64,000 bases of DNA from a virus (taxonomy: Duplodnaviria; Heunggongvirae; Uroviricota; Caudoviricetes), in IMG/VR virus record IMGVR_UViG_3300050026_000241; one strand, 5' to 3'. A program made the translations under genes and the position numbers. Below, piece by piece: positions 23,431 to 64,000 of the stretch (positions are counted from its first letter, which is position 1; every line of letters begins with the position of its first letter). The notes below the pieces were generated by a model. The model made no database searches, was not told the DNA's origin, and saw only the letters and a program-made list of their open reading frames with translations.

Positions 23431-23447
23431 CCCATACGACACGAACT

Positions 23448-25821: not shown

Positions 25822-26387
25822 AAAACCCCGGCGACCAAGTTATACCGAAGTCAATGATACGCACGTTCCAAAGCGACTTTCGCATTCTGGACGAGTGGAC
25901 CATTGAGTATGAGGAAGACGGCGAGGCGTTGGTCGGTCGGTTTTGCACCAACGGGCAGTGTTGCCATAATGTGTCCGATAAGTTAGCATCCATCTACCCT
26001 TGTCCGGCCGACGTACCGATACATAAGTACGTCCGGCACGAAATGATACACATTGCCCTGGCCGCGTTGTTCGGCCCGGACGAGCCTTACGGCGTCCGAC
26101 GCCGGTTGGAGGAAGAGTTCGTCCAAGACGTTTGCGCCTTGACCCAAAGCAATGGAGAAACCATGAGTCCCGAGCGATTCCCCGAAATGACCGCCACACT
26201 GGCCGAAGACCGGCCCGAATACCTCCCACTCCCCGTCTGCGTTTACGGTGAGCGGACAACAATTTCCTGTTGGCGTTTGAGTTTGTGGGAAAGGCTCAAG
26301 CTGCTGTTCACCGGCCGCTTGTGGCTGCTGGTCCTGAACTTCCGGCAGCCGTTACAGCACAACTTGAACGCAACAAACGCAACATAG
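25818..26387 (+). CDS. hypothetical protein with HExxH motif
   Basis: RHEMIHIALAALFG; GTG start (alt ATG 25854). Confidence 0.4.
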   Translation: MKNPGDQVIPKSMIRTFQSDFRILDEWTIEYEEDGEALVGRFCTNGQCCHNVSDKLASIYPCPADVPIHKYVRHEMIHIALAALFGPDEPYGVRRRLEEEFVQDVCALTQSNGETMSPERFPEMTATLAEDRPEYLPLPVCVYGERTTISCWRLSLWERLKLLFTGRLWLLVLNFRQPLQHNLNATNAT

Positions 26388-36138: not shown

Positions 36139-36143
36139 TTGAC

Positions 36144-36171
36144 TTGACTTCTCTGAAAAGGATGCTATGAT
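36144..36171 (+). promoter_or_regulatory. sigma70-like promoter cassette (duplicate copy with doubled -35)
   Basis: GTTGACTTGACT...TGcTATGAT; followed by truncated copy of 36523 gene start. Confidence 0.45.
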
Positions 36172-36295
36172 TGAGTATGGACACAACCAAGAACCGACAG
36201 CGTGACGCCTACACCTTCGCCTACACCTTCGCCAACACCAACCTGTTGGGTCGGTCCACTTTTCCAAATGGCTCAACTAGACCTGGGAGATTGAT

Positions 36296-36493
36296 ATGCA
36301 CGAAGTTGAATTTGTAAGCGCCCGATACCTGGAAATGGCCGCCGCGCATCCGGGCCTGATTACCAGAAGCCGCCCGGTAATGATCGAACGGCGGATACTC
36401 GACAGGCGAACGACCGACCGGCGCGAAGTTGACCGCTGCGATTCAGTAGCACAACTGCTACGGGCCGCCTTTCCCGAATTCGGCCGCGCTTGA
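36296..36493 (+). CDS. hypothetical protein
   Basis: 65 aa; lies between the duplicated promoter/5'-end copies. Confidence 0.4.
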   Translation: MHEVEFVSARYLEMAAAHPGLITRSRPVMIERRILDRRTTDRREVDRCDSVAQLLRAAFPEFGRA

Positions 36494-36517
36494 CTTCTCC
36501 GAAAAGGATGCTATGAT
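36490..36517 (+). promoter_or_regulatory. sigma70-like promoter cassette
   Basis: leaderless ATG 36523. Confidence 0.6.
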
Positions 36518-36522
36518 TGAGT

Positions 36523-37368
36523 ATGGACACAACCAAGAACCGACAGCGTGACGCCTACACCTTCGCCAACATCAACCTGTTGGGCCGGTGCAACTGTGAT
36601 TGTTTCTTCTGCTTGGGTAAGGATATTCCCGAGCTATTACAGCAACATGACCAGCGGGCCGTCCACTTTTCCAAGTGGCTCAACTGGTGGGCCTTCCTTC
36701 GTCGCTGCTGTGACGAGGGTGTGTCCAAGCTGTACGTCACCGGGCAGAACACCGATTCATTACAGTACGTCCACTTGCAGGAATTGATCGACTTCCTGCA
36801 TCGCCAACGCTTCCAAGTCGGGCTGCGGACCAACGGCTATCTCGCATCAAAGCGGCTGGCCGTAATCAACAGCACTGACCTGAGCGTGGGCTACAGCATC
36901 CATTCGATCATCCCGGCCACGACCAGGGCCATTCTCGGTCGAAGCGACATTCCCGATTGGGACATGCTTCTCACCGAGACCGAACGGCCGCGCGTGCAGA
37001 TCGTCGTCAATCGCTACAACAAGACCGAATTCTGGCCGCTGCTTGAGCACATCGCCAGCTTCCCAAAGGTCCGCTACGTTCAGGTGCGGCGGGTTTGCTC
37101 CGACACGCGAGAGCCCGAGTTGACGCCGGACATTGAGGCACACGACCGGCTGCATGACGAAGTTCGGCAACTCTACCCGCTCAAGAAGATCATCTACGGA
37201 AGCGCGGAAGTCTACAACATTTACGGCAAGGAAGTAGTCTTCTGGCGCACGGTCAAGACAACGGCCAACTCGCTCAACTACTTCACGGACGGCACCGTGA
37301 GCGACCAGTATTTCATTGTGGAGGGCTACCAGAAATACTGCGGCCGGGAGTGCGCCAATGCCAACTGA
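36523..37368 (+). CDS. radical SAM protein
   Basis: cassette promoter, leaderless; CNCDCFFC (CxxxCxxC). Confidence 0.7.
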   Translation: MDTTKNRQRDAYTFANINLLGRCNCDCFFCLGKDIPELLQQHDQRAVHFSKWLNWWAFLRRCCDEGVSKLYVTGQNTDSLQYVHLQELIDFLHRQRFQVGLRTNGYLASKRLAVINSTDLSVGYSIHSIIPATTRAILGRSDIPDWDMLLTETERPRVQIVVNRYNKTEFWPLLEHIASFPKVRYVQVRRVCSDTREPELTPDIEAHDRLHDEVRQLYPLKKIIYGSAEVYNIYGKEVVFWRTVKTTANSLNYFTDGTVSDQYFIVEGYQKYCGRECANAN

Positions 37369-41733: not shown

Positions 41734-41764
<31 letters not shown>

Positions 41765-42519: not shown

Positions 42520-42583
42520 GTAGTAACTTAACAACACAACGCAACCGAAGCCCAAACCGGAGGAAAAGAAAGTGGAAACCCCC

Positions 42584-49723: not shown

Positions 49724-49726
49724 CAA

Positions 49727-49762
49727 CCAGCATGACAACCAGCATGACAACCAGCATGACAG
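49727..49762 (+). repeat. 12-nt tandem repeat CAACCAGCATGA x3 spanning a start codon
   Basis: seen directly. Confidence 0.75.
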
Positions 49763-50750: not shown

Positions 50751-50969
50751 ATGAGCGACGAACTTGCTATCCTTGACGCCCTGTGGACAACGCTCCGTAT
50801 CCGGTTGCACGGTCCTTTCATCGGCGTAGGATATTTCATTGTGAAAGACCTGGGGGCCTGTGCCGAGAGGATTTGGACCGGGGAAGATTGGGGCCGTGCC
50901 CCGAAATACTACCCCACCTTGCAAGCCGCCTTTGACGACTTGCCTAACATCTGCCGGTTTCTGACTTGA
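50751..50969 (+). CDS. hypothetical protein
   Basis: cassette promoter, leaderless. Confidence 0.5.
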   Translation: MSDELAILDALWTTLRIRLHGPFIGVGYFIVKDLGACAERIWTGEDWGRAPKYYPTLQAAFDDLPNICRFLT

Positions 50970-51001
50970 CTTTCGACTTGACTTTCGACTTGACTTTCGA
51001 C
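50962..51001 (+). repeat. 12-nt tandem iterons TTGACTTTCGAC x3 merging into true -35
   Basis: seen directly. Confidence 0.8.
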
Positions 51002-51029
51002 TTGACTTCTCTCCGGCACATGCTATGAT
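51002..51029 (+). promoter_or_regulatory. sigma70-like promoter cassette preceded by three extra -35 iterons
   Basis: leader to 51065. Confidence 0.6.
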
Positions 51030-51064
51030 TAAGTAGGTTCACAACACAACAGGGAGCAACCGCA

Positions 51065-51493
51065 ATGATTACCGCAATGATTACCGCAAAAGGCCGCCTG
51101 GGCAACCACGACATTGAAGCCGAATGTATCAATCCTGGCGATTGGTTTGGCAAGGTTTGGCTCTTGGAAATCGGTTGCGGTTATAGTTCCGGCTTCTTTG
51201 CCGTCGAAGCCGACTCCGTTACCGATGCCATTGACGAATTTTCAGGCAGCAAGTACGGCCACCTTATCCTGATCGACGAAGCCGATTTTGCCGATTACGT
51301 GGAAGATGGCGAGTTCAACGGTTACACCAACGATGGTGGGCAGCCCTGTGATTTGGACAACGTAATGGTTCACGGCGAAGAGCGCCCCGGCCGTGGCGAG
51401 TATACCCCCTGGAATTGCCGATATTTTGCCGACGATCTTCCGGCCGAAGGCATGACGCCGATTGCCTACTATCGACGAAATGACGAAGAGTAA
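51065..51493 (+). CDS. acidic hypothetical protein
   Basis: MITAMITA from 12-nt duplication. Confidence 0.55.
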   Translation: MITAMITAKGRLGNHDIEAECINPGDWFGKVWLLEIGCGYSSGFFAVEADSVTDAIDEFSGSKYGHLILIDEADFADYVEDGEFNGYTNDGGQPCDLDNVMVHGEERPGRGEYTPWNCRYFADDLPAEGMTPIAYYRRNDEE

Positions 51494-51500
51494 AAATCAC

Positions 51501-51529
51501 TTGACTTCTTGCGGCCACATGCTATTCTT
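51501..51529 (+). promoter_or_regulatory. sigma70-like promoter cassette (variant -10 TATTCT)
   Basis: 17-nt spacer; leader to 51550. Confidence 0.45.
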
Positions 51530-51549
51530 AAACAGAAGGAAACATTGTT

Positions 51550-52041
51550 ATGATAACTAAGGGCAGAATCGTCAACAGCGGTGTGGGCGGGTTTCTCAAC
51601 CCGCCTGGGCACCCGGAGCATACTCATTCGGTCGAAACGGACCTTCGCCGCAAGCCGGAAAACCGGGGTTCAATGTCCCTGAGTTACGCCGTCAAGTCAC
51701 AATGGCTTGACAGCGGCACGTTTGCCGAAGCTATGACCTTGCTATTAGCCTGGGCAGTGAATAAATTGCCCTTGACCGCCCCGGCCGTCAAGGATTGGAT
51801 TCTGCAATGCCTGGGTTACTTCCGGGGTTGCTACAACTTTCGTTTCGGCGGCACGCCGGCAGACAACGAAGCCGGATGGGAGGCGGGCAACCTTACCATC
51901 GACCAGGGTCTTGACCCGATGAAAAACGCCGATTTTCACGCCGGGGTTCACCATATCCGCGAATTCTACCCGGACTACACGCCCCGCGCCGTTGACTTCC
52001 AACGGGCCTACTGGGGTAAACAGCGTCAATCCGCTTTCTAA
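51550..52041 (+). CDS. hypothetical protein
   Basis: cassette promoter + GAAGGAAACATTGTTATG leader. Confidence 0.55.
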   Translation: MITKGRIVNSGVGGFLNPPGHPEHTHSVETDLRRKPENRGSMSLSYAVKSQWLDSGTFAEAMTLLLAWAVNKLPLTAPAVKDWILQCLGYFRGCYNFRFGGTPADNEAGWEAGNLTIDQGLDPMKNADFHAGVHHIREFYPDYTPRAVDFQRAYWGKQRQSAF

Positions 52042-52042
52042 C

Positions 52043-52070
52043 TTGACTTCGCCCCGGCACATGATATGAT
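52043..52070 (+). promoter_or_regulatory. sigma70-like promoter cassette
   Basis: leader to 52103. Confidence 0.6.
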
Positions 52071-52102
52071 TGATTAGTCAACTAACAACGCAAGAGGAAA
52101 CC

Positions 52103-52495
52103 ATGACGACCCGCGACAAGTGCAAGCAACTCCGAATCGAACTCGATACCGCCCTCAAGGCCATTGGCGAAAAGCTGGGCATGACGATTCAAGTAGGCCG
52201 GTCAATGAGTTTCACTGACTCGGCGATCAACATCAAACTCGTTGCGAGCCTCCCGAACGCCACGACCGGCGTAATCGAACCCGTCGAAGCCAAGGACTTC
52301 AAAGCGAACACCTGGAAGTGGGGTCTGGAAGCCAGCGACCTGGGCCGCACCTTCACCCATGCCGGCGACACTTTCGAGATTACCGGAGCAAAGCCGAAAG
52401 CCAGCAAATTCCCTATCCTCGCCAAGCGCGGCGACGGCAAGGGCTACAAGTTTCCGGCCGACTTGATTCGCTTGAAACTTCACCCGGCCGCCTGA
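52103..52495 (+). CDS. hypothetical protein
   Basis: cassette promoter + leader. Confidence 0.55.
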   Translation: MTTRDKCKQLRIELDTALKAIGEKLGMTIQVGRSMSFTDSAINIKLVASLPNATTGVIEPVEAKDFKANTWKWGLEASDLGRTFTHAGDTFEITGAKPKASKFPILAKRGDGKGYKFPADLIRLKLHPAA

Positions 52496-52503
52496 AATCT
52501 GAC

Positions 52504-52531
52504 TTGACTTCTTCAAACCACATGGTATGCT
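52504..52531 (+). promoter_or_regulatory. sigma70-like promoter cassette
   Basis: TGgTATGCT; leaderless 52537. Confidence 0.55.
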
Positions 52532-52536
52532 TGAGC

Positions 52537-52740
52537 ATGTTCAAGAGCTTCTATACGAAAGATCAACTGACAATGCTTCTACTCGATTGGAGGCAACCCC
52601 TCGTCATTCCGAAGGGTAATCAGTCAATCGTTTTGGAGTTCCCGCCTGACCGACAATTCAGCCGATGCCGCTACAATCGGGCCGCGCAGAAATCGACCTA
52701 CGGCAAGCCACTTTACGAAGTCACCCTCTACAACCCCTAG
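52537..52740 (+). CDS. hypothetical protein
   Basis: cassette promoter, leaderless. Confidence 0.45.
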   Translation: MFKSFYTKDQLTMLLLDWRQPLVIPKGNQSIVLEFPPDRQFSRCRYNRAAQKSTYGKPLYEVTLYNP

Positions 52741-52750
52741 AACCCGCACA

Positions 52751-53152
52751 ATGCAAACAGCAAAAATCAGAATGGCACTCACGAAGGGCGAACGAGCCGC
52801 CCGCGATCATGCCGAGAAAAACAGCCGCCTGGGCTTGCCGGCAACGCCGGCGGACGCCCGGCACTTGGCGAACTATCGGCGTAAGATGCACCTATGGCAG
52901 TACGGAAAAGCCGCAATAGGTGCGGCGGCGATAGGCGTCACTGCTATTCTAGCAGCTTTCGCAATGGCAAAATTCGCCGACGAACAGTACAATGCGGCGG
53001 GTCAGAAAGCCCGCGCAGATTTTGAAAAGACACGCAGCGACCAACTCGCTATGGAAGACGCAGCCAGAGCCGAGAAGATAGCGGCCGAAGCCGCTGCCGA
53101 TGACATTGAGTTTAAGTTCCGCCGTTGCCTAGGCTACCGGCCCTTGCCCTGA
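52751..53152 (+). CDS. membrane-associated coiled-coil protein
   Basis: TM AIGAAAIGVTAILAAFAMA. Confidence 0.5.
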   Translation: MQTAKIRMALTKGERAARDHAEKNSRLGLPATPADARHLANYRRKMHLWQYGKAAIGAAAIGVTAILAAFAMAKFADEQYNAAGQKARADFEKTRSDQLAMEDAARAEKIAAEAAADDIEFKFRRCLGYRPLP

Positions 53153-53161
53153 AATTCCAGC

Positions 53162-53189
53162 TTGACTTCTCACCGTCACATGGTATGAT
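53162..53189 (+). promoter_or_regulatory. sigma70-like promoter cassette
   Basis: leader with 21-nt duplication to 53244. Confidence 0.6.
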
Positions 53190-53243
53190 TGATTATCAGT
53201 CAACCAACAGGAAGCAGCAGTCAACCAACAGGAAGCAGCAGTT

Positions 53244-53693
53244 ATGTTTTTCGACGCCACCGAATTGCAAGAAGTCCTGGGCACCGTCACCTGCCCGCAC
53301 ATGAAACGGGCCTTTCGCAACCGAAGCCCTATCACGGTTTCCCTCTGGAATCGGGCCGCTTTCAAGTTGACCGGCGACCACTATAACGGCGGCGCGATCT
53401 ATGCCGCTTGTAGCCGGTATTGCAGCAAAATGGGAGTTTTCGACGGCGGCAAAATGACACCCGGCAACTGGCAAGAGATTGCCGGCAAACTGCCTGGGTT
53501 TATTGCGGACCCGCCCGAATTGGCCCTGAGCCGCTACAGGTACGAAGTGCGCCACGGCCTGACGGACAGCCGGCAAGACAGCGATTACCCGGCCGGGAAA
53601 TTCCGGCTTGACTTTTCCCCGGCACATGTATATAGCTTGATTAAGTTAAATCTGTTCCCCGGCAGGGAACAAACCGACAAGAGGATATTATGA
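53244..53693 (+). CDS. hypothetical protein
   Basis: leader has 21-nt duplication; 3' end encodes next promoter (true stop may be earlier only if sequence differs). Confidence 0.5.
   Translation: MFFDATELQEVLGTVTCPHMKRAFRNRSPITVSLWNRAAFKLTGDHYNGGAIYAACSRYCSKMGVFDGGKMTPGNWQEIAGKLPGFIADPPELALSRYRYEVRHGLTDSRQDSDYPAGKFRLDFSPAHVYSLIKLNLFPGREQTDKRIL
53609..53636 (+). promoter_or_regulatory. sigma70-like promoter cassette inside upstream CDS
   Basis: TGtATATAG; leader with small hairpin to 53690. Confidence 0.5.
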
Positions 53694-54151
53694 GACTTAA
53701 CGCATCGTCCGCCGAAATCGTAAAAGTTCTACGGCGTTACGGCTATGACGTTTCCTTCCCCGTCGAAATCGACTTGCAAGAGTATCAGGCGAAGGTCACC
53801 CTGACCGGCAACCGGCGCGCCCTTGTATCGAAGAACGATCAAGGCGGATGGGTAATGGAATACGCGAAAATTTACCCGGACAAGTTGACCTATCACGATC
53901 ATCTTTGCATCTACAACGCCCTCACCCGCGAGGGCGTGCGCCTTATGGCCCTCTGGTATGACAGCCTATGCGAGCCGGCTCTACGCGATAAGGCCGCCGA
54001 GTATTCGGCAGACTTGAACCAGAATAATTATCTCAAGTGCAAGGTGGAACGGCTATTGAAAGCCGAGCGCAACCGGCAACTTGCCGCCGAGCGAGCCGAG
54101 CAAGCCGCCGCCCTGAAATCTGACTTGACTTCTTCAAACCACATGGTATGA
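53690..54151 (+). CDS. hypothetical protein
   Basis: internal cassette promoter; 3' end encodes the next cassette promoter. Confidence 0.5.
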   Translation: MRLNASSAEIVKVLRRYGYDVSFPVEIDLQEYQAKVTLTGNRRALVSKNDQGGWVMEYAKIYPDKLTYHDHLCIYNALTREGVRLMALWYDSLCEPALRDKAAEYSADLNQNNYLKCKVERLLKAERNRQLAAERAEQAAALKSDLTSSNHMV

Positions 54152-54152
54152 T
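54125..54152 (+). promoter_or_regulatory. sigma70-like promoter cassette
   Basis: near-identical to 52504 copy; ATG 54161. Confidence 0.6.
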
Positions 54153-54160
54153 TGAGAACT

Positions 54161-54508
54161 ATGAAACTCTTTCGCCCTTACACCAGCGTCAAGCCCACCC
54201 TCGCAACGGGCGGGGCCTGTTACAAACTGACCGAAGCCGAGTTACGCCGGCTCGTGCCGAAGGCCGCCGCCGATGACATCATGGCCGCCGCCAACAGCCG
54301 CGAGCCGGGCCAATGGAGCAAGGAAACCGTTTCCTACCCCTTGAACCGCCCCGGCACCGTTACCGTGCAAAACGTCGAATTCTACGGCGGAGAAAACTTT
54401 GGGCAAGCCTACGCTTTCCCGGCCGAAATCCGGCACAATACGACGCAATCGGCTTTTGCCGCCTGTGTCAACCGCCTGCGCATACCCCTCCGTCCCCTCA
54501 ACTACTAG
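54161..54508 (+). CDS. hypothetical protein
   Basis: cassette promoter, short leader. Confidence 0.5.
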   Translation: MKLFRPYTSVKPTLATGGACYKLTEAELRRLVPKAAADDIMAAANSREPGQWSKETVSYPLNRPGTVTVQNVEFYGGENFGQAYAFPAEIRHNTTQSAFAACVNRLRIPLRPLNY

Positions 54509-54526
54509 CCCTGACTCGACGCCGCC

Positions 54527-55090
54527 ATGCAAAACAAAACCATCGCCAAGAAGGTAGACGAAATCGAACGACAGATTAACACCGGCCGTTCTGCCCTGCA
54601 CGCGCCAACGGGCAAGAAGGCCGATTCCGCAATGTTTGACGCCCAGCGTTACGCTATCGGCTTTTCGTACCGGGCAAGAGAAGGCCACCTTACACCGAAG
54701 GGCTTGATTATCAACGCGAACCGTCTAGCCCGCCTGATTGCCGCCGCCCGCCCCACCGTTCCCGCTATCGACGGTATCGCCCTTAACGCCCTTACCCGCG
54801 CCCAAATGGCCGCCAACGCCCTTGCCGCCGCCTTGCTACCGGCCCCGGCCCCGGCAGTAAGCGGGCCGGCGAAACAAGCGACAAAACGACCGACTATGAA
54901 TCAAAACGAATTCATTGTCAAGGCCGATGCCGCGAAAGATCAAGCCCAGGTTTACTTTCGCAACCGGCGTTTGACCCTCCGGCAGTACGGTTGCATACTC
55001 CGTAACATCGGAGCAACCGTCAAGAAGCACGAAACCGAATCGGCCCCGGCAGAAAGCCGCCTTGCCGAGATTTTGCAAAAGTTGACTTGA
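54527..55090 (+). CDS. hypothetical protein
   Basis: 187-aa ORF. Confidence 0.5.
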   Translation: MQNKTIAKKVDEIERQINTGRSALHAPTGKKADSAMFDAQRYAIGFSYRAREGHLTPKGLIINANRLARLIAAARPTVPAIDGIALNALTRAQMAANALAAALLPAPAPAVSGPAKQATKRPTMNQNEFIVKADAAKDQAQVYFRNRRLTLRQYGCILRNIGATVKKHETESAPAESRLAEILQKLT

Positions 55091-55114
55091 CTTCTCCCCG
55101 GCACATGGTATGAT
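55087..55114 (+). promoter_or_regulatory. sigma70-like promoter cassette (doubled -35)
   Basis: GTTGACTTGACT; leader to 55151. Confidence 0.6.
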
Positions 55115-55150
55115 TGAATATCTAACAGAATATCTAACAGGGAGCAACAC

Positions 55151-55528
55151 ATGACCGCCGACGAATACAAAGCATACGAAGCCGCCGTCGCCAAGTTCTT
55201 TTTCCTTGAGGGAGTCACGAATCTCTCAACCGGGCATTACCGTTGCCCGAATTGCAGCACCCCGGAACGGGATGTCGAATTCGACGACAACGGTATCTGC
55301 CCAGAATGTGGCGCTGATCGGGAAATCCTGAACGAGTCGAGTTTCTCATGGCGACGTTGCGATTGTTGCAACCGGCCCCTGGGCGGGGACCGGGAATTTG
55401 CAACCGGCTACAACCCCACAACGCGCGAGATTCAGGAATATCACATCTGCACCGATTGTGTCTACTTTGCCGAGTACGGCCGCCTTGACGATATGACCAT
55501 GATGAAAGTGGAGGAAAGCAAGCAATGA
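55151..55528 (+). CDS. zinc-finger-rich hypothetical protein
   Basis: CPNC, CPECG, CDCCN, CTDC. Confidence 0.55.
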   Translation: MTADEYKAYEAAVAKFFFLEGVTNLSTGHYRCPNCSTPERDVEFDDNGICPECGADREILNESSFSWRRCDCCNRPLGGDREFATGYNPTTREIQEYHICTDCVYFAEYGRLDDMTMMKVEESKQ

Positions 55529-55719
55529 GCAAATGGCAATTATTCAGCCTGTTAGCCGATGCCGACGCCCGGCCCCGGCACTTTACCGATAACAACGGGG
55601 TTCAATACTTTGGACTTCTGCAATCGGTAGCAAGGGAGAGCGGTAACGGTTCTTCCTTTAATGTCACCGTTGCAAATCAATCGGGTTGTGCCACATTCCA
55701 TTTAAGAACGGTTGACTAA
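55525..55719 (+). CDS. hypothetical protein
   Basis: 64-aa ORF. Confidence 0.45.
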   Translation: MSKWQLFSLLADADARPRHFTDNNGVQYFGLLQSVARESGNGSSFNVTVANQSGCATFHLRTVD

Positions 55720-55934
55720 TGAATTGCATCTATTGCAACGCCGTAGTTGCCGATGGCAACCTTGAACGGCACGCGGAACAAAGCGCCCTGTGCGCCCGTA
55801 TGGCCCTGGCTTTCATCCGTTCGATTCCTACCGGGCACGCCGACATCGACGGTTCTTTCAGCCGCGAGGATAAGGCTGGGGCAATCCGGCGAAGCCGGGC
55901 ACGTCTAGCGAAAGCATTGGCGGCCCCGGCGTAA
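55719..55934 (+). CDS. hypothetical protein
   Basis: CIYC N-terminus. Confidence 0.45.
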   Translation: MNCIYCNAVVADGNLERHAEQSALCARMALAFIRSIPTGHADIDGSFSREDKAGAIRRSRARLAKALAAPA

Positions 55935-55995
55935 CTCCGGTAAAATCGAAAACCGAATTTTCAAACTTTGGCCCTTTTCCTTCACGGTTGCGCAC
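55930..55995 (+). repeat. dispersed noncoding element (copy 3)
   Basis: CGAAAACCGAATTTTCAAACTTTGGCCCTTTTCCTTCACGGTTGCGCACACCC. Confidence 0.5.
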
Positions 55996-56016
55996 ACCCA
56001 CCCACCCAGGCTAATT

Positions 56017-56262
56017 ATGAGCAGCAAGAAGAATCGACCGAAACCCGCCGCCAAAACCCTGCGCGACAAGAAGAAAGCGAAAGACACCCGCTGCGCGAAA
56101 CGGAAAGAGCGGGCCTGGGCCGCGAAATTGACCGCCCCGGCCCTGCCGACTTGGAAGCGACCGCCCGGCCCCTTGCCGCCACCCGGCCCCTTGCCGCCAC
56201 CTGCGGCCGGCGAAAATAGCCACTTGGATTCTGGCTTGACTTCTCCCCGGCACATGGTATGA
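56017..56262 (+). CDS. basic hypothetical protein with PGPLPP x2
   Basis: 3' end encodes next cassette promoter. Confidence 0.45.
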   Translation: MSSKKNRPKPAAKTLRDKKKAKDTRCAKRKERAWAAKLTAPALPTWKRPPGPLPPPGPLPPPAAGENSHLDSGLTSPRHMV

Positions 56263-56263
56263 T
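56236..56263 (+). promoter_or_regulatory. sigma70-like promoter cassette
   Basis: leader to 56293. Confidence 0.6.
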
Positions 56264-56292
56264 TGATCTAACAACGCAACAGGGAGCAAGCA

Positions 56293-56724
56293 ATGAACAA
56301 TTACATTCTCTACGCCTACCCGCATACGGCCGGCGCGAAGAACAAGGGAATCATCGGCACCAGCGGGCCGAACCCCCGCGCCACAATCCACAATTCCAGC
56401 GGCCTACGGCCGGAGCGGTTTTACTTCCGGGCCGCCGACAATGCCGCCGCCTACCGCTACGTTTGCGAGAATTACCGGCCGGAAGATACCCGGCCGCTAT
56501 CGGGCAAGAGTTACATCAAGCCCCGCAAGTTGGCGGAAGGGGATAGGGTCTATCTCATTGAGCCTTACCGCCTGGGGTGGAACGATAACGGCGATAAGGT
56601 TTACGCCGATTGTGGCGTCATTTCCGAAGTACTCGAAACATTCATCAGTATCGACTTTAACGGTGTTCACGATCAGCACTATCACACGCGGTTTGTCGAT
56701 TTTTCCTTGAGTGAGATTCTCTAA
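56293..56724 (+). CDS. hypothetical protein
   Basis: cassette promoter + leader. Confidence 0.55.
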   Translation: MNNYILYAYPHTAGAKNKGIIGTSGPNPRATIHNSSGLRPERFYFRAADNAAAYRYVCENYRPEDTRPLSGKSYIKPRKLAEGDRVYLIEPYRLGWNDNGDKVYADCGVISEVLETFISIDFNGVHDQHYHTRFVDFSLSEIL

Positions 56725-56738
56725 CAGAAGGTAGCATC

Positions 56739-56966
56739 ATGGCAATCAATATGGGAACGGGTGGCAAGCGACGGGGGAAAAACCTATGGCTCGACCTTGT
56801 TACCTCTCAGCAGCAATGGGTTGCGGAGCATGGCGGGGACTTGGCGGGCTACATCGACCGCTACACCGGCCGATACGGGCGAACCGTGGAAAACGCGACA
56901 GCGATCTATCAGGCGGATATTGACGCCCTGAAACGATACGAAGCCCACCTTGCCAATTATCGGTAA
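56739..56966 (+). CDS. hypothetical protein
   Basis: GAAGGTAGCATCATG RBS. Confidence 0.5.
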   Translation: MAINMGTGGKRRGKNLWLDLVTSQQQWVAEHGGDLAGYIDRYTGRYGRTVENATAIYQADIDALKRYEAHLANYR

Positions 56967-56983
56967 TCCCGTTGAAATTCGAC

Positions 56984-57011
56984 TTGACTTCTTCCCGGCA
57001 CATGCTATGAT
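56984..57011 (+). promoter_or_regulatory. sigma70-like promoter cassette
   Basis: leader to 57055. Confidence 0.6.
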
Positions 57012-57054
57012 TGTATAGATTCACAACGCAACGCAAGCAACAGGGAGCAAAACA

Positions 57055-57426
57055 ATGGGAATACAAGTTCCGCGATTGGCGAAGGGTAAGGGCTATAAAG
57101 GGCCGGAGTTTTACGGTTGTTTCAATACCGGCATGGCCCCGGCAATCTTTCATTCGCGCACCGGCAAGTATGTGGTGGGGCCGGAAATCCCCTGCCGTGA
57201 CGCAATGCGGGCCTGTGCTTGCCTTGATAACAAGCGCACCTGGGGCACCGACCCGCGCCGCAAGGTTTACATTTTCAAAGGCCGGGCCGCCGCCGTTTCA
57301 AAGTTCCTGGCATTGTGCGGGGCGGCAATTCTACAGAACCACCAGATACGGCAAGAGCATATCGAAACCGCCCGCAAGGCAAAGGCCGGGGACATTGGGG
57401 CCGCCCTTGCCCTGGGAGATTACTAA
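57055..57426 (+). CDS. hypothetical protein
   Basis: cassette promoter + leader. Confidence 0.55.
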   Translation: MGIQVPRLAKGKGYKGPEFYGCFNTGMAPAIFHSRTGKYVVGPEIPCRDAMRACACLDNKRTWGTDPRRKVYIFKGRAAAVSKFLALCGAAILQNHQIRQEHIETARKAKAGDIGAALALGDY

Positions 57427-57624
57427 ATGGCAAAGCGACCGCCGAAACCTATCGACCCGGCCGATGCCCGCGAAACCGTCTATGCGGTCCTGAACGTAAT
57501 GCAGGGAGTGACGGCCGGCATGTTGCAAATGGCGACACAACTGCCAGCGGCCTACTGTCACGAAGTTGCCGCCCTCCACCGGCGGCTACTTGCCCGATAT
57601 GGGGATGATTGGGAAAATTCCTAG
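57427..57624 (+). CDS. hypothetical protein
   Basis: 65-aa ORF. Confidence 0.45.
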   Translation: MAKRPPKPIDPADARETVYAVLNVMQGVTAGMLQMATQLPAAYCHEVAALHRRLLARYGDDWENS

Positions 57625-57632
57625 ACCGCCGC

Positions 57633-57660
57633 TTGACTTCGCCCCGGCACATGGTATGAT
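57633..57660 (+). promoter_or_regulatory. sigma70-like promoter cassette
   Basis: leader to 57694. Confidence 0.6.
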
Positions 57661-57693
57661 TAAGTAGGTTCACAACACAACAGGGAGCAAACC

Positions 57694-58254
57694 ATGAGCG
57701 TGCATATCGTAGATCGAATTGAAGCTGTCCGCTTTCCCGCCCTCGCTATCGGCCACTATGAGGATGTCTTTCTCGTCATGGAATTGGGCGGCGACAATAA
57801 TTGCACAAACGCCCGCACCGGCCGCCGCGCGAAATCGTGGTCCGCTACTTGCATCGGGCCGGACTGGGTTGTAGTTGGCGATTGCTGCCGTTTCGCGGCC
57901 GATTGTGCGGGCGGTTCTACGAAGTTGAAAAGCCGCCGCACAACGCCCGAAGCCTACATCCGGGCCTATCGCAAGGCCCTGGCAAACGCTACCACCTTGC
58001 AAGACGCACTTGTTTCGCGCGGCCTGCATATCCGGGGGCGCATTCGATTCAACCCCGCCGATAAGAGCGGGGCCTACGCCCTGGAAAGGGCAATCGCGGG
58101 TGGCAAGGCCCCGGTTGAAATCGACTACTTCGGTACGAAGATGCTTTCCGTCGAATTCAATCTTGACGACACTGCCGACCTTTCCCTTTGGAACGATTGT
58201 CGGCACGGTACGGGCTGGAACAACTGTGACGTTCACGGCCCCGGCTGCCATTAA
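57694..58254 (+). CDS. Cys-rich hypothetical protein
   Basis: cassette promoter + leader. Confidence 0.55.
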   Translation: MSVHIVDRIEAVRFPALAIGHYEDVFLVMELGGDNNCTNARTGRRAKSWSATCIGPDWVVVGDCCRFAADCAGGSTKLKSRRTTPEAYIRAYRKALANATTLQDALVSRGLHIRGRIRFNPADKSGAYALERAIAGGKAPVEIDYFGTKMLSVEFNLDDTADLSLWNDCRHGTGWNNCDVHGPGCH

Positions 58255-58269
58255 ATTCTTACGGCCGGC

Positions 58270-58297
58270 TTGACTTCTCCCCGGCACATGCTATGAT
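58270..58297 (+). promoter_or_regulatory. sigma70-like promoter cassette
   Basis: leader to 58351. Confidence 0.6.
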
Positions 58298-58350
58298 TGA
58301 GTAAGTTCAGACCGTGTAAACGCAACAGGGAGCAACAGGGAGCAAACAGT

Positions 58351-58662
58351 ATGACCGACACCGAAACCACCGTTGACGAAGTTATCTTTCGCGTTTGGAA
58401 CAAAGTCCGACATGGTGGGTGTGACGACGTTTTCGCGCTCTTCCCCTACATCCCGGCGACCGACCGCTACGTCACCAGTTATCAGTATATCGGCCAGCAT
58501 TGCGCCGCCGATTACGACTGGTGTATCGCGCATAGCCGCCCGGCCACCCCTGCCGAGTATGCAGACCTTTTAGCCGAATTGCGCGGCCTGGGATACTGCC
58601 CCCGGGCGGTTACGCGAGTCAACCGCCACCGTATGCTTGACGCCTTCGCGGCGATTCTGTGA
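58351..58662 (+). CDS. hypothetical protein
   Basis: leader has CAACAGGGAGCAA x2. Confidence 0.55.
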   Translation: MTDTETTVDEVIFRVWNKVRHGGCDDVFALFPYIPATDRYVTSYQYIGQHCAADYDWCIAHSRPATPAEYADLLAELRGLGYCPRAVTRVNRHRMLDAFAAIL

Positions 58663-58669
58663 ACACCGC

Positions 58670-58697
58670 TTGACTTTTACCCGGCACATGGTAGAGT
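58670..58697 (+). promoter_or_regulatory. sigma70-like promoter cassette
   Basis: TGgTAGAGT; leader to 58728. Confidence 0.55.
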
Positions 58698-58727
58698 TCA
58701 TTATCTAACAAGCAACAGGGAGAAACC

Positions 58728-59132
58728 ATGTTCAACACCGAGCGAGCCGAAGCCACCGTGAGACTTGATACCGCTATCCGATTCCGACAAATGGGCGGGG
58801 GTTACTGGTATCCCGATACGACCACCGACCGCAACGCTATCAAGTTGGCAGGGGTCAAGACTTTCAAGCCGACGAAGACCGAGGATGAAATCCTGACGCA
58901 ACTTTCCGGGGTTGCCTTTTGCGAATTTCTGACGCCGCCCCTGGGCCGCAACAGCGAGAAGGCCGCCCTCGTTACCGCCTTTCAAGCGCGGCAAACCGCC
59001 TACGCCGCCCAGCCCCTAAGCGACCGTGACGCAAAGCGGCTTGCAATCGTCGAAACCGCGCTTGAGCAACTGGAATACCCCACGGCCGAAGCTATCGACG
59101 CCGCCGCGCATATTCTGGAAATGCTGGCTTGA
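58728..59132 (+). CDS. hypothetical protein
   Basis: cassette promoter + leader. Confidence 0.55.
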   Translation: MFNTERAEATVRLDTAIRFRQMGGGYWYPDTTTDRNAIKLAGVKTFKPTKTEDEILTQLSGVAFCEFLTPPLGRNSEKAALVTAFQARQTAYAAQPLSDRDAKRLAIVETALEQLEYPTAEAIDAAAHILEMLA

Positions 59133-59156
59133 CTTCTCTCCGGCACATGGTATGAT
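59129..59156 (+). promoter_or_regulatory. sigma70-like promoter cassette
   Basis: leader to 59206. Confidence 0.6.
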
Positions 59157-59205
59157 TGAGTAAGTTCAAACTACAACGCAACCGCAAGCAACAGGAACAA
59201 AGACC

Positions 59206-59658
59206 ATGATCGACCACGAAACCGACCCTTACACTCTGCCTATCGACGCCCACGTTATCAGCCTGAACGAAACGGACCACTATCAGATCGACGAAGCCGA
59301 CGCCCCTTTCATCGCGGAAATCCGCGGCGCGTACTTTTACGACAGTAATGTCGTTACGTGTTGCTGCGAATTGACCGGAAGTTATTTCCTCATGCACATT
59401 GGCGACTCCGTTATCCTGACGCCGGCCGGGGAGGAATTGGACGATGACGCGAAGGACGAGATTTACCAGAAGTACGAATTTAACGGCGGGGACGATATTT
59501 ACATGCACGCGCACACCATCGACCGCCTTGCCGCCAATGCCGAATACCGCTTCGAGTATCACCACTATGGCGAGACTGGCGTTTCTTACGACGAATCGGA
59601 CTATGAATCCCAAATTGAGGGATTGCGGGAACACTTCTGCGGAAACGCATACGTCTAA
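59206..59658 (+). CDS. acidic hypothetical protein
   Basis: followed by intrinsic terminator. Confidence 0.55.
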   Translation: MIDHETDPYTLPIDAHVISLNETDHYQIDEADAPFIAEIRGAYFYDSNVVTCCCELTGSYFLMHIGDSVILTPAGEELDDDAKDEIYQKYEFNGGDDIYMHAHTIDRLAANAEYRFEYHHYGETGVSYDESDYESQIEGLREHFCGNAYV

Positions 59659-59684
59659 TCGACGCCACAACTTATCCCGTTGCC

Positions 59685-59729
59685 CCGGCCGGCTTGCCCT
59701 CCCCTTGCAAGCCGGCCGGTTGTTTTTCT
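59685..59729 (+). terminator. rho-independent terminator
   Basis: CCGGCCGGCTTGC...GCAAGCCGGCCGG stem followed by TTGTTTTTCT. Confidence 0.7.
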
Positions 59730-59739
59730 GGGATGAAAC

Positions 59740-59767
59740 TTGACTTCTCCCCGGCACATGGTATGAT
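59740..59767 (+). promoter_or_regulatory. sigma70-like promoter cassette
   Basis: leader to 59799. Confidence 0.6.
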
Positions 59768-59798
59768 TGATTAACAGTCAACAACAGGGAGCAACAAA

Positions 59799-60044
59799 AT
59801 GAGCAAGCCAGTACGATTTTTCGAGCAAGCCGACAGAACCGGCAGTGTTATTACCTACTCTTGGATCATCGACGCCCCGAAGCGGGCCGCCCGGCACTTG
59901 CCCGGATGGAAGTGGGTTGTCGGCCGCCCCGGCAGCTTCGTCACTAACGACCGGCAAACCGCCGCCGAAACGGCCGCCCGCCTGGGCCTTACCCCGCAAT
60001 CGAACGGCACGCACCACGTTCACAACGCCCCCTTCTGCCTCTAA
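59799..60044 (+). CDS. hypothetical protein
   Basis: cassette promoter + leader. Confidence 0.5.
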   Translation: MSKPVRFFEQADRTGSVITYSWIIDAPKRAARHLPGWKWVVGRPGSFVTNDRQTAAETAARLGLTPQSNGTHHVHNAPFCL

Positions 60045-60055
60045 CAACGCGAATC

Positions 60056-60274
60056 ATGTGCAACCATAGCGACCATCCTCTTGACGCCCGGTTTATCGTG
60101 CAACTGACTCAAATGAGTACCGGCAGCACGCACCTATCGGACCCTACCGACCGCCGCCAACTTGCCCGTAGCATTCGGGCCGCCCGCCGCGAAACGCAAC
60201 ACTATCAAGCGCAACGCGATTACACCGGCCCCTACCGCATCTTCGACCACTGGACACCCCGCCGCCCGGGTTGA
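60056..60274 (+). CDS. hypothetical protein
   Basis: 72-aa ORF. Confidence 0.4.
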   Translation: MCNHSDHPLDARFIVQLTQMSTGSTHLSDPTDRRQLARSIRAARRETQHYQAQRDYTGPYRIFDHWTPRRPG

Positions 60275-60336
60275 CCCTATCGACGTTTACCGAATTGTCC
60301 CCCGGCCGGACCCCTCCGAAAATCTTGACGGCCCAT

Positions 60337-60364
60337 TTGACATTGCCCCGGCACATGGTATGAT
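60337..60364 (+). promoter_or_regulatory. sigma70-like promoter cassette (-35 TTGACA)
   Basis: leader to ~60407. Confidence 0.5.
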
Positions 60365-60406
60365 TGATTATCAGTCAACGCAATCACGCCGCAACAGGGA
60401 GCAACA

Positions 60407-60574
60407 ATGTACGCCACGACCCAGAAAACCAGCAAGCCAATGATTATCAGCGGCCGGGACATCCTGGCCGGGACTCGACAACTTTACAAGTTGCCGTTTC
60501 GTTGCGAAACGCATGGAAAGAAGGGGCGAAAAACGCGAGGGGAAATCAGCCGCCGCGCTATCAGGGAATTCTAA
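60407..60574 (+). CDS. small basic protein
   Basis: 55 aa after cassette promoter + leader; not in track; approximate. Confidence 0.4.
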   Translation: MYATTQKTSKPMIISGRDILAGTRQLYKLPFRCETHGKKGRKTRGEISRRAIREF

Positions 60575-60583
60575 TTGCCCGGC

Positions 60584-60611
60584 TTGACTTCTTAGAGGCA
60601 CATGGTAGAGT
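60584..60611 (+). promoter_or_regulatory. sigma70-like promoter cassette
   Basis: TGgTAGAGT; leader to 60654. Confidence 0.55.
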
Positions 60612-60653
60612 TAAATATCTAACAACGCAACAGGGAGCAACAGGGAGCAAACA

Positions 60654-60836
60654 ATGGACTTTCAAGTAGGTCAGCATTTGATACATACCGACCGCCGCCA
60701 ATGTCAAACAATTTGCGAGTTTCGCGGTTTCCATAACCACGCCGAAACCGGGCAGCGCGTAGCCCGCGTGATCTTCCGCCCGGTTGCCGGGCCGCCGTTT
60801 GAAACCTCCGTTGACCCCGCCGAATTGAGAGCCTGA
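60654..60836 (+). CDS. hypothetical protein
   Basis: cassette promoter + leader. Confidence 0.5.
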   Translation: MDFQVGQHLIHTDRRQCQTICEFRGFHNHAETGQRVARVIFRPVAGPPFETSVDPAELRA

Positions 60837-60852
60837 CACCGGAGCAAGAGCA

Positions 60853-61044
60853 ATGCACAACATTCGCCTATCATTGACGCCGGCCGGCTGGGTTGCCCGG
60901 TACACTGACCCGGAGATTTACCGGCTATTCAAGACCGTCACCTTATTGACCACTTTCACGGCCAACGCCGCGCCTATGGCCGTTCTAGCGGAAATTAGAC
61001 GACTTAACCCGGCCGCCGATGTTCAACTAGACCTGGGAGATTGA
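60853..61044 (+). CDS. hypothetical protein
   Basis: 3' end shares CAACTAGACCTGGGAGATTGA with ~36268. Confidence 0.45.
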   Translation: MHNIRLSLTPAGWVARYTDPEIYRLFKTVTLLTTFTANAAPMAVLAEIRRLNPAADVQLDLGD

Positions 61045-61062
61045 CTTGACTTCGCCCCGGCG
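61035..61062 (+). promoter_or_regulatory. sigma70-like promoter cassette (doubled -35)
   Basis: TGgTAGTAT; leader with (CAACG)n to 61128. Confidence 0.55.
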
Positions 61063-61069
61063 CATGGTA

Positions 61070-61105
61070 GTATTAAGTAACAACGCAACGCAACGCAACG
61101 CAACG
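61070..61105 (+). repeat. (CAACG)n pentanucleotide repeat in 5' leader
   Basis: 5-6 units; exact count uncertain. Confidence 0.7.
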
Positions 61106-61127
61106 CAACGCAACAGAAAGTAGAACA

Positions 61128-61388
61128 ATGAGCAACACAACCGCGACCGCAACCGAAATCTATCCGAAAGAACTTTTCGACCTTGCCGACGCAATCAAAC
61201 GGCAGCCGCCCGACATTCGGGCCGCCCTTGCCGCCCCGTTGAAAACGGCCCTTGACGCCGCCGCCCGCCTCCGGCTCGTCCTGACGCTAGTACAGGACAC
61301 CTTGCAACAGATACGGCTTGACATCAAGTTTCTGACCTTCGACCTTGAGGCAACGCGCCGCGAGCGCGATGCCGCGAAAGGATTGTAA
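61128..61388 (+). CDS. hypothetical protein
   Basis: leader has (CAACG)n. Confidence 0.5.
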   Translation: MSNTTATATEIYPKELFDLADAIKRQPPDIRAALAAPLKTALDAAARLRLVLTLVQDTLQQIRLDIKFLTFDLEATRRERDAAKGL

Positions 61389-61390
61389 CA

Positions 61391-61612
61391 ATGGCAGCGA
61401 TTGCAACATTCAACGGCCGCAATATGAAAACCATACGCCGGGCCGATGCCACGTCTTTCGGACCCTCTTCCGGGGGTCAAGACGGCCGCAACGAAACACA
61501 TGCAAAGCGGGAAGTAGCGGAAGAAGTTGCCGCCCGACTTACACAACTCGATTACCTTTTCCCTACCCAAAAACGACCCCAGAAACGACCCCAGAAACGG
61601 AGCAGCAAATGA
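61391..61612 (+). CDS. hypothetical protein
   Basis: KRPQKRPQK from 12-nt duplication. Confidence 0.45.
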   Translation: MAAIATFNGRNMKTIRRADATSFGPSSGGQDGRNETHAKREVAEEVAARLTQLDYLFPTQKRPQKRPQKRSSK

Positions 61613-61767
61613 AACCCATGCGAACGTACAAGGACAAAAATAACCTGACCGGCACGGCCGCCGAACTCGCTACAATCGAAAAGGTCCGCACGGAGTTTCA
61701 AGCGGAATGGCTTTTGCAGAAGGCCCGCCTGACGCGCAAGACGGCCGCCGCCAAGAAGCGGGCTTAA
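61609..61767 (+). CDS. small basic protein
   Basis: 52 aa; ATGA overlap; approximate. Confidence 0.35.
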   Translation: MKPMRTYKDKNNLTGTAAELATIEKVRTEFQAEWLLQKARLTRKTAAAKKRA

Positions 61768-61799
61768 CTTTCAACTTAACTTTCGACTTAACTTTCGAC
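61768..61799 (+). repeat. 12-nt tandem iterons CTTAACTTTCGA(~x3) upstream of -35
   Basis: seen directly. Confidence 0.75.
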
Positions 61800-61827
61800 T
61801 TGACTTCGCCCCGGCACATGGTATTAT
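61800..61827 (+). promoter_or_regulatory. sigma70-like promoter cassette preceded by 12-nt iterons
   Basis: TGgTATTAT; leader to 61852. Confidence 0.55.
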
Positions 61828-61851
61828 TGAGTAACCTAACAGGGAGAAATC

Positions 61852-62124
61852 ATGGCAAAAAACAACGGCAAATGCAGCGAGTGTAACAAGAGCCTGCGCA
61901 TCAGCGTAGAGCAGTTTATCGGCCCCGCCAAGAGTAAGCCGATTGCCCCCGGCACTACAATGCCGGGTGGCACTACAACCTGCATAAAGCAACTAAGCGG
62001 AACAAGCTGGTGCGCGGATTTTCGCGTAGGAAACTGGGCAATCATCGACGGCCGCAAAATCTGCACGACCTGCGCAGAAGCTAAACTCGACCCGAACAAT
62101 CACCCGGCACTTGAGCCGACTTGA
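61852..62124 (+). CDS. Cys-rich hypothetical protein
   Basis: CSECN...CTTC. Confidence 0.5.
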   Translation: MAKNNGKCSECNKSLRISVEQFIGPAKSKPIAPGTTMPGGTTTCIKQLSGTSWCADFRVGNWAIIDGRKICTTCAEAKLDPNNHPALEPT

Positions 62125-62168
62125 GAATCGACTTGAGAATCGACTTGAGAATCGACTTGAGAATCGAC
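62117..62168 (+). repeat. 12-nt tandem iterons CGACTTGAGAAT x4 upstream of -35
   Basis: seen directly. Confidence 0.8.
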
Positions 62169-62196
62169 TTGACTTCTCCCCGGCACATGGTAAGAT
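62169..62196 (+). promoter_or_regulatory. sigma70-like promoter cassette preceded by 12-nt iterons
   Basis: TGgTAAGAT; leader to 62258. Confidence 0.55.
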
Positions 62197-62257
62197 TGAG
62201 CATACAAACAACGCAACAGGAACAACACAACAGGAACACCGCAACAGGAACACCGCT

Positions 62258-62563
62258 ATGAAAATCACCGGAAGCAAGTTTGCAACAATGGCCGCCGCCG
62301 TCAAGGCCGTTGTCGAATACGCTGGGGGACCGCGAGCCATTATGGCCGCCTATGACCGATACACCGAGAAACGCCTGATATGGGACTTGTGGCACGCCGC
62401 AAGCCACAATATCCTCTATGATGACGCGCACCCTCAATTTGCCCTGGGATACTGCACCCGCGTCTATCCGCACGTTCCGAACTTCGATATTTACAGTGAC
62501 GGGGTTTACGATTCGCATATCGAAACGGCACTTTTTAAGATTTGGCGTGAAATTGCCGCTTGA
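62258..62563 (+). CDS. hypothetical protein
   Basis: leader has CAACAGGAACA x3. Confidence 0.55.
   Translation: MKITGSKFATMAAAVKAVVEYAGGPRAIMAAYDRYTEKRLIWDLWHAASHNILYDDAHPQFALGYCTRVYPHVPNFDIYSDGVYDSHIETALFKIWREIAA

Positions 62564-63825: not shown

Positions 63826-64000
<175 letters not shown>

Follow-up and report, generated by a model that had tools for sequence, protein, structure and literature searches.

The stretch of DNA analyzed here is a 64,000-nt window of the genome of an uncultured bog phage (Caudoviricetes; IMG/VR record IMGVR_UViG_3300050026_000241), and our subject is three tandem arrays of 12-nt units in it, each of which lies at the junction between a gene and the promoter of the next one. 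The arrays were detected by direct reading of the sequence and with Tandem Repeats Finder (TRF), both of which confirm the three arrays described in an earlier note on this DNA; all coordinates are those of the whole window. The site 1 array (50962-51009, + strand) has four units: TGACTTGACTTT (50962-50973), two copies of CGACTTGACTTT (50974-50997), and CGACTTGACTTC (50998-51009), which carries the -35 box. The first of these units begins with a T, and not with the C that the earlier note had given it. TRF reports this array as 50958-51008, with period 12, 4.2 copies, 97% matches and a score of 93. The site 2 array (61763-61810, + strand) consists of CTTAACTTTCAA, two copies of CTTAACTTTCGA, and then CTTGACTTCGCC, the unit of the real -35 (TRF: 61763-61806, period 12, 3.7 copies, 93% matches, score 74); its upstream units all read TTAACT, a weakened -35. 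The site 3 array (62117-62176, + strand) has four perfect copies of CGACTTGAGAAT followed by CGACTTGACTTC, and a partial CTTGAGC precedes it (TRF: 62117-62172, period 12, 4.7 copies, 100% matches, score 112). The G+C content of the units, counted from the unit sequences, is 33-42%, compared with 56% for the genome.

As had been proposed, the arrays run into the true -35: the last unit of each one provides the TTGACT of a promoter of the form TTGACT-N16-TGnTA(T/A)(G/T)AT. The site 1 promoter (51002-51029, + strand) has its -35 TTGACT at 51002-51007, a 16-nt spacer with TG at 51021-51022, and the -10 TATGAT at 51024-51029. The site 2 promoter (61800-61827, + strand) and the site 3 promoter (62169-62196, + strand) have the same TTGACT and a 16-nt spacer with TG, with TATTAT and TAAGAT as their respective -10 boxes. 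All three have what is expected of a sigma-70-type extended -10 promoter, namely a TTGACA-like -35, a spacer of 16-18 nt, a TGn, and a TATAAT-like -10, and we predict from these elements that they are strong extended -10 promoters read by a sigma-70-type RNA polymerase of the host. A promoter scan finds 36 promoter-like sites (7.4 expected), none of them built from an upstream array unit. We thus rejected the possibility that the upstream units are alternative promoters: none of them pairs with a -10, only the last unit does.

The three promoters belong to a family with 41 members in the window, all on the + strand and between 11.7 and 62.6 kb (11732-62587), of the form cTTGACTTc-N16-TGnTAtgaT. 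Across 50 related contigs from bog metagenomes we collected 75 non-redundant instances. In one class of these promoters the 16-nt spacer CCGGCACATG is conserved as well as the hexamers, with a CA-rich leader and an AGGGAG Shine-Dalgarno (SD) sequence downstream of it. About 15 others have an ATG 6-7 nt past the -10, and their predicted mRNAs appear to be leaderless. Each copy of the promoter precedes one or a few small genes without family match, and the region as a whole has the look of a phage early region. Arrays are absent at 38 of the 41 promoters. Two ideas about the family were set aside. A TCGA before the -35 is not a mark of the arrays, as 50717 reads TCGACTTGACTT with neither array nor upstream unit. 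And a likeness of the conserved spacer (CGGCAC...ATGAT) to the -24/-12 elements of sigma-54 was not retained, as GA stands in place of the GC of the -12, and the sigma-70 elements are close to consensus. Two queries from the window, of 19.8 kb and 25 kb, had no near-identity match among 50,697 phage records (INPHARED), and exact scans of IMG/VR with the promoter pattern gave 0 matches. The window also has a 346-bp tandem duplication (36143-36571, 98% identity) that copies a promoter together with the first ~50 nt of its gene, and leaves two adjacent paralogous gene starts.

The genes around the arrays say little about function. Site 1 lies between an open reading frame (ORF) of 72 aa without family match (50751-50969, + strand), whose exact protein is found in 5 contigs, and an ORF of 142 aa (51065-51493, + strand), also without family match. 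Upstream of site 2 there is an ORF of 52 aa according to the JGI gene call (61609-61767, + strand), with the frame open from 61345. A cysteine-rich ORF of 90 aa (61852-62124, + strand) lies between sites 2 and 3, and an ORF of 101 aa (62258-62563, + strand) with a weak match to phrog_9817, of unknown function, lies downstream of site 3. Searches of ten flanking ORFs against Pfam and PHROGs gave nothing informative, and no neighbor resembling a Rep or repressor protein.

What these genes do tell us is where the arrays come from. At 11 of the 41 promoters, a long upstream ORF stops at a TGA inside the -35 hexamer (T-TGA-CT), as for example at 40372, 46517, 55087, 59129, and 62560, the last being the stop of the ORF downstream of site 3. 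A stop codon within the -35 of the next promoter is an extreme case of overlap between coding and promoter signals. At the three arrays, the upstream stop is found in the first unit instead. At site 1, the TGA at 50967-50969 lies within the TTGACT of the first unit; at site 2, the TAA at 61765-61767 lies within the TTAACT of the first unit; and at site 3, the TGA at 62122-62124 that ends the cysteine-rich ORF lies within the first unit. Compared with their place in the 11 other promoters, the stops are thus shifted upstream by exactly 36, 36, and 48 nt, and every unit of each array repeats the upstream stop in frame. Therefore, each array duplicates the 12-nt stop/-35 overlap. The presence of an upstream stop in each first unit had escaped the earlier note.

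The arrays are real. Base-for-base copies of them are present in independently assembled JGI and Logan contigs, thus they are not an artefact of how the window was assembled. The possibility that the window is a synthetic or generated sequence, which its many perfect repeats and poly-C decay had raised, was rejected, as exact proteins and 100%-identical DNA are found in several JGI and Logan assemblies. Chance is excluded because 30 simulations with a Markov-1 model produced 0-2 perfect duplications of period at least 9, and the window has 29. We rejected also the possibility that the arrays are hairpins or slipped structures; the three show no potential for either (z-scores 0.07, 0.93, and -1.72).

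How did these promoters look in other lineages? The orthologous promoters in diverged relatives (contigs are given by their L numbers) have 0 or 1 extra unit, compared to 3 at site 2 and 4 at site 3 in the window. At the orthologue of site 2 in L085, where the upstream gene is 85% identical, the sequence is ...AAGAAGCGGGC-TTGACTTC, in which the -35 contains the stop and there are 0 extra units; the ancestral state of site 2, without repeats, is directly visible there. L052 also has 0 extra units at this position, L071 and L022 have one (ccTGACTTTCGcTTGACTTC), and the L060 promoter for the gene downstream of site 2 has none. L071 and L022 have one extra upstream unit at the orthologue of site 3. 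In L036 and L052, the orthologue of the gene downstream of site 1 is preceded by cTGACTTGACTTC only, with 0 extra units. In L060 and L072, the orthologue of the 90-aa cysteine-rich ORF reads on into a longer protein, and the window copy is truncated by comparison. The break (62109-62124) comes directly after CACCCGGC, at the point where the site 3 array starts, and because the ORF of L060 and L072 reads on past it, this array sits at a mosaic junction at a promoter cassette. Moreover, independent 12-nt duplications of the -35 are present at other promoters in the relatives: CCGGCTTGACTT twice (L030 and L062), GCTTGACAATCG 2.6 times (L045), and a phased series of three units (L062). Taken together, the earlier states in relatives and the independent duplications indicate that the arrays are young, lineage-specific, and recurrent. 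That the units are perfect or nearly so (93-100% matches) is also a sign of a recent origin.

The number of units also varies within the population. At site 1, the window and sample 3300048772 carry 4 units, and samples 3300048778 and 3300050032 carry 3; the two contigs with 3 units differ from the window by only 0 and 2 single-nucleotide polymorphisms (SNPs) over 2.5 kb. The earlier note had advised a search for copy-number variation in related genomes, and it is found both in these two samples and at the orthologous promoters. At site 2, one SNP in L007 makes the first unit identical to the other units. Similar changes are seen away from the arrays. A (CA)14.5 tract (41734-41762), in the leader between the promoter at 41691 and the SD of the gene at 41779, is 4 units shorter in L093 and 2 units shorter in L094, both near-identical contigs, and L094 has an extra GCAAC in the leader at 42540. 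All four insertions or deletions (indels) among near-identical contigs (site 1, two alleles at 41734, and 42540) fall within tandem repeats of regulatory regions.

The window has 29 perfect tandem duplications of period at least 9 (0.45 per kb), the three arrays among them, and 14 of the 29 have period 12; that the arrays are part of a lineage-wide pattern was absent from the earlier note. By the same measure, 1 duplication is found in lambda (0.02 per kb), 4 in T7 (0.10 per kb), 0 in 40 kb of Rhodococcus phage Weasels2, and 1 in an unrelated bog contig. The density in the window is 5-20 times that of these three phages, and ~100 times that expected by chance. The relatives (L018-L073) have 27 distinct perfect duplications in 112 kb (0.24 per kb), 9 of them with period 12. 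The mode at 12 nt is sharp, and it is found in coding and non-coding DNA alike. We found nothing specific in the literature on tandem -35 duplications or on a 12-nt duplication bias in phages, and this lineage-wide bias is a more interesting point than the arrays themselves.

In the 20.5 kb for which we have independent gene calls, 17.7% of the sequence is non-coding, and at least 7 of the 12 repeats (period at least 9) are in non-coding DNA or across gene starts. Most repeats of the early region fall on promoters, 5′ leaders, and start codons, and they duplicate -35 boxes, SD regions (58322, 60627, and 62207), leaders (53197 and 55116), and start codons (51059 and 49724). Two of them belong to the same transcription units as the arrays. 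In that of site 1, ACCGCAATGATT is repeated 2.6 times across the start codon (51059-51089, + strand), and the protein begins with MITAMITA. In that of site 3, the 14-mer AACAACGCAACAGG is repeated 3.6 times in the 5′ untranslated region (5′UTR; 62207-62256, + strand), and with it the Shine-Dalgarno-like CAACAGGAAC. Elsewhere, a junction between a stop and a start has CAACCAGCATGA repeated 3.2 times (49724-49761), two SD regions (58322-58345 and 60627-60650) have GCAACAGGGA repeated 2.4 times at each, and a leader (53197-53242) has a 21-mer repeated 2.2 times. As for the -35 boxes themselves, we count 2 hit by repeats in the non-coding early DNA, versus ~2.4 expected by random placement according to our own arithmetic.

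We consider it probable that the arrays are near-neutral, variable-number repeats, made by slippage at places where the upstream stop was embedded in the TTGACT. Replication slippage, in the form of a microhomology-mediated tandem duplication followed by gain or loss of units, would have acted at the junction of a gene with the next promoter, and the 12-nt stretch over the stop/-35 overlap would have been duplicated at three such junctions. The first unit would then supply the stop of the upstream gene, and the last unit alone would serve as the -35. The intervening units would be passengers that push the upstream DNA 36-48 bp away, with at most a modest effect on promoter strength. They would persist because the upstream edge of the -35 is among the few places of this densely packed region that should tolerate a 12-nt insert without breaking a gene or the -35/-10 spacing. 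In other words, a selective filter would act on an unusually slippage-prone genome, and -35 edges, leaders, and gene termini would be the sites left for harmless insertions of ~12 nt.

Several observations argue for this reading. The units of an array derive from the sequence at its own site, and they are not the same from one site to the next. The near-perfect local copies, the unit counts that differ or the units that are absent at orthologues, and the genome-wide population of repeats are what characterizes variable-number tandem repeats (VNTRs) or minisatellites. The earlier note had named slippage expansion among its options, and that option is borne out by the locally copied units, the lineage-specific counts, and the alleles of site 1, from which we infer the mechanism. 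Its suspicion that copy number is changing also stands as far as relatives with 0-1 extra units and the 3- and 4-unit alleles of site 1 are concerned; within the population, sites 2 and 3 are invariant. What did not survive of its interpretation are the iterons, the regulator, and the helical phase beyond the nearest unit, to which we return below.

Other observations weigh against near-neutral slippage products. Neutrality is an inference on our part. The 3- and 4-unit alleles of site 1 come from assembled consensus sequences and not from reads, and the number of units is constant at site 2 (9 contigs) and at site 3 (5 independent contigs). All six -35 arrays, counting those in the window and in the relatives, have period 12, and the periods of the 5′UTR repeats range from 5 to 21, which could hint at a constraint. 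In the upstream units, the sequence tends to depart from that of the real -35 (TTAACT, TTGAGAA), which could reflect selection against decoys, or selection for an A-rich element similar to the UP element. Finally, arrays occur at 3 of the 14 promoters that have an ancestral stop in the -35 versus 0 of the 27 others, with a post hoc Fisher p of ~0.03.

The main rival is that the repeats at -35 boxes, 5′UTRs, SDs, and start codons are hypermutable knobs of early-gene dosage, as in contingency loci. A gain or loss of units would shift the strength of the promoter or of translation, and the population would carry a standing variation in the dosage of early genes. Its weight comes from the location of the repeats on expression signals (-35, SD, and ATG) and from their being the most variable positions in the population, as all indels among near-identical strains are in such repeats. 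The excess of repeats in the 17.7% of non-coding DNA or across gene starts, and the repeated emergence of new arrays in relatives, go in the same direction, and promoter-proximal repeats do control expression in bacteria, as the TAAA repeats of nadA (PMC2791445) and the 7-bp repeats of hmw1A (PMC8262952). On the other hand, purifying selection against insertions of 4 codons would equally enrich repeats in non-coding DNA, and by our estimate there is no excess at the -35 over other non-coding positions. Nor are the arrays conserved at orthologous promoters. Large effects are not expected either, since extended -10 promoters lean less on upstream contacts, and as the downstream genes have no known family, no phenotype can be linked to them. 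We regard this tuning of expression as a possibility, clearly behind that of near-neutral slippage. A bolder version of it, which we think is rather unlikely, is that the lineage has a replication-linked process that makes perfect duplications of ~12 nt at a very high rate, and that the phage exploits the arrays so formed, at start codons, SDs, leaders, and -35 boxes alike, as reversible switches for the dosage of individual early genes.

Another possibility is that the upstream units are constitutive contacts for RNA polymerase selected for promoter strength, either as decoy sites for sigma region 4, or as elements similar to UP that bind the C-terminal domain of the alpha subunit. There are some indications in its favor. 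A TTGA word occurs 12 nt upstream of the real one in 9 of the 75 promoters and 11 nt upstream in 3, and other offsets have about 1 each. The proximal UP subsite lies near -42 to -45, and many of the upstream units read TTGAAAT or TTGAGAA, which places an A-rich patch there; units of such low G+C also stand out in this genome. But the TGA at the 12-nt offset is often simply the upstream stop codon, and while some units read GAAAT or GAGAAT, they do not have the A/T-tract consensus of UP elements. Moreover, 38 of the 41 promoters manage without an array. The earlier note had proposed decoy or extra region-4 sites, and we see no sign of them: none of the upstream units has a -10 to pair with, and those of site 2 read TTAACT. 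It had also proposed that the units are nearly in helical phase. This is correct for the adjacent unit only; because 12 nt amount to 1.14 helical turns, or ~51 degrees per unit, the phase with the real -35 is lost from the second unit on, and the third or fourth unit is on a nearly opposite face of the helix. We find polymerase contacts improbable as an explanation of the arrays.

That the arrays are iterons or operators, repeated sites for a phage-encoded initiator or repressor, is already largely refuted, and we give it very little credence. The likeness is superficial, that of tandem direct repeats beside promoters. The label of iterons given to the arrays by the earlier note does not fit three arrays with three different units, each from its own locus, and the unit of site 3 (CGACTTGAGAAT) has no other occurrence in the window. 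The matches elsewhere to the units of sites 1 and 2 are the ordinary -35 boxes of other promoters, and for these reasons we also rejected the possibility that the arrays are copies of a dispersed operator motif. Nor is there support for the units as binding sites of a phage regulator, as they differ between sites and the other 38 promoters have no arrays. In addition, the flanking ORFs include no Rep-like or repressor-like neighbor, there is no A+T-rich unwinding region (G+C is 0.55-0.59 in 2-kb windows), and the repeats are missing at orthologous loci.

Least probable of all is an assembly or sequencing artefact that inflates simple sequence, for which one could invoke the obvious poly-C artefact in the last 173 bases of the window and the contigs that break in arrays (L004, L007, and L008 stop at 62146 and L079 at 50990, and the starts of L014 and L084 lie within site 1), but identical arrays with the same unit counts were assembled independently by JGI and Logan from at least 5 samples with two pipelines, and at 48-60 nt they are shorter than one read. 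The tail of the window (63828-64000) consists of CCGCCCC repeats that decay into 114 C, and it is an assembly or sequencing artefact and not biology, because the independent contig L003 is identical to the window up to 63827 and then continues with 470 nt of ordinary sequence. The ends of independent short-read contigs at 50975-50990, 61085, 61754, 62146, and 28441 are in arrays or at conserved promoters; these repeats fragment the metagenome assemblies of this phage.

Two other features of the window should be mentioned. One is an ORF similar to TnpB/Cas12f (26392-27726, 444 aa; region 26367-27776), which has a weak match to PF07282 (22.7 bits, below the 26.3-bit cutoff) and matches the transposase family phrog_506. 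Perfect inverted 18-mers lie on both sides of it, each made of a 9-mer in tandem, (AACGCAACA)x2 and (TGTTGCGTT)x2. In L030, an early promoter whose -35 is duplicated lies ~160 nt upstream of a region that matches this element with 79% identity. The other is a set of conflicting clues as to the host. The relative L085 (CAVSGB010000324.1) was binned in a metagenome-assembled genome labelled Bacteroidetes, but promoters of the TTGACT/TATGAT type and SDs of the AGGGAG type are atypical of Bacteroidota, and the proteins closest to a Thg1-like protein (23208-24194), at 51% identity, come from phages of Mycobacterium and Rhodococcus.

If the arrays are near-neutral, they are a caution against reading tandem repeats at promoters as iterons. 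They could also be used as markers for strain typing, and they would illustrate how micro-duplication can pull apart signals that overlap, as a stop codon and the -35 box around it do here. The density of duplications and their 12-nt mode would point either to an unusual property of the replication machinery, or to a routine adjustment of early-gene expression by repeat number. In phages, the contingency loci reported to date are all homopolymers (bioRxiv 10.1101/2025.10.21.683753), and if the arrays were dosage switches, they would be contingency loci at the level of promoters and translation in a virus of bacteria.

How do the arrays compare with known systems? The promoters resemble the extended -10 sigma-70 promoters of phage early regions whose long consensus is conserved, such as the early promoters of T4, in that there are many near-identical strong promoters, each followed by one or a few small early genes without family. 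They differ from them in that the conservation of the 16-nt spacer CCGGCACATG equals that of the hexamers, and in that about 15 apparently give leaderless mRNAs. For the repeats, a first comparison is with the contingency repeats of bacteria, such as the TAAA repeats upstream of the -35 of nadA in Neisseria meningitidis (PMC2791445) and the 7-bp repeats in the promoter region of hmw1A in Haemophilus influenzae (PMC8262952), both of which control expression. There, too, the tract is within or directly upstream of the promoter, and slippage changes the number of units between close strains, as it probably has at site 1. But the bacterial repeats are of a 1-9-nt motif, short enough for high slippage rates and unrelated to the promoter, and the bog-phage units are 12-nt copies of the -35/stop overlap in a phage genome, with only one of three arrays seen to vary, and a hypothetical effect on expression. 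The contingency loci of phages are homopolymer tracts of at least 6 nt, in T2/T4 and other phages, which act mostly by frameshifting ORFs (bioRxiv 10.1101/2025.10.21.683753). These share with the arrays that slippage-prone repeats in a phage genome lead to heterogeneity in the population, and differ from them in that the bog-phage repeats have 12-nt units and are non-coding and frame-neutral; the word "promoter" is absent from the main text of that paper.

Origin iterons, such as the O-binding repeats of the lambda ori or the RepA iterons of plasmids, are similar to the arrays in being tandem direct repeats, and in little else, as the arrays have period 12, three different units, and no adjacent Rep gene or A+T-rich element. 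Iterons are ~17-22 bp long, usually about two helical turns apart, with one consensus for one initiator, and they lie beside an A+T-rich region and the initiator gene. Finally, with the slippage-derived VNTRs and minisatellites of bacteria and viruses, the arrays share perfect head-to-tail copies, polymorphism in the number of units, absence at orthologues, and many co-occurring repeats. The differences are an unusually high density, the sharp mode at 12 nt, and the recurrent capture of -35, SD, and ATG signals. The best-supported assignment is thus to a known kind of repeat: slippage-derived VNTRs, here at a promoter.

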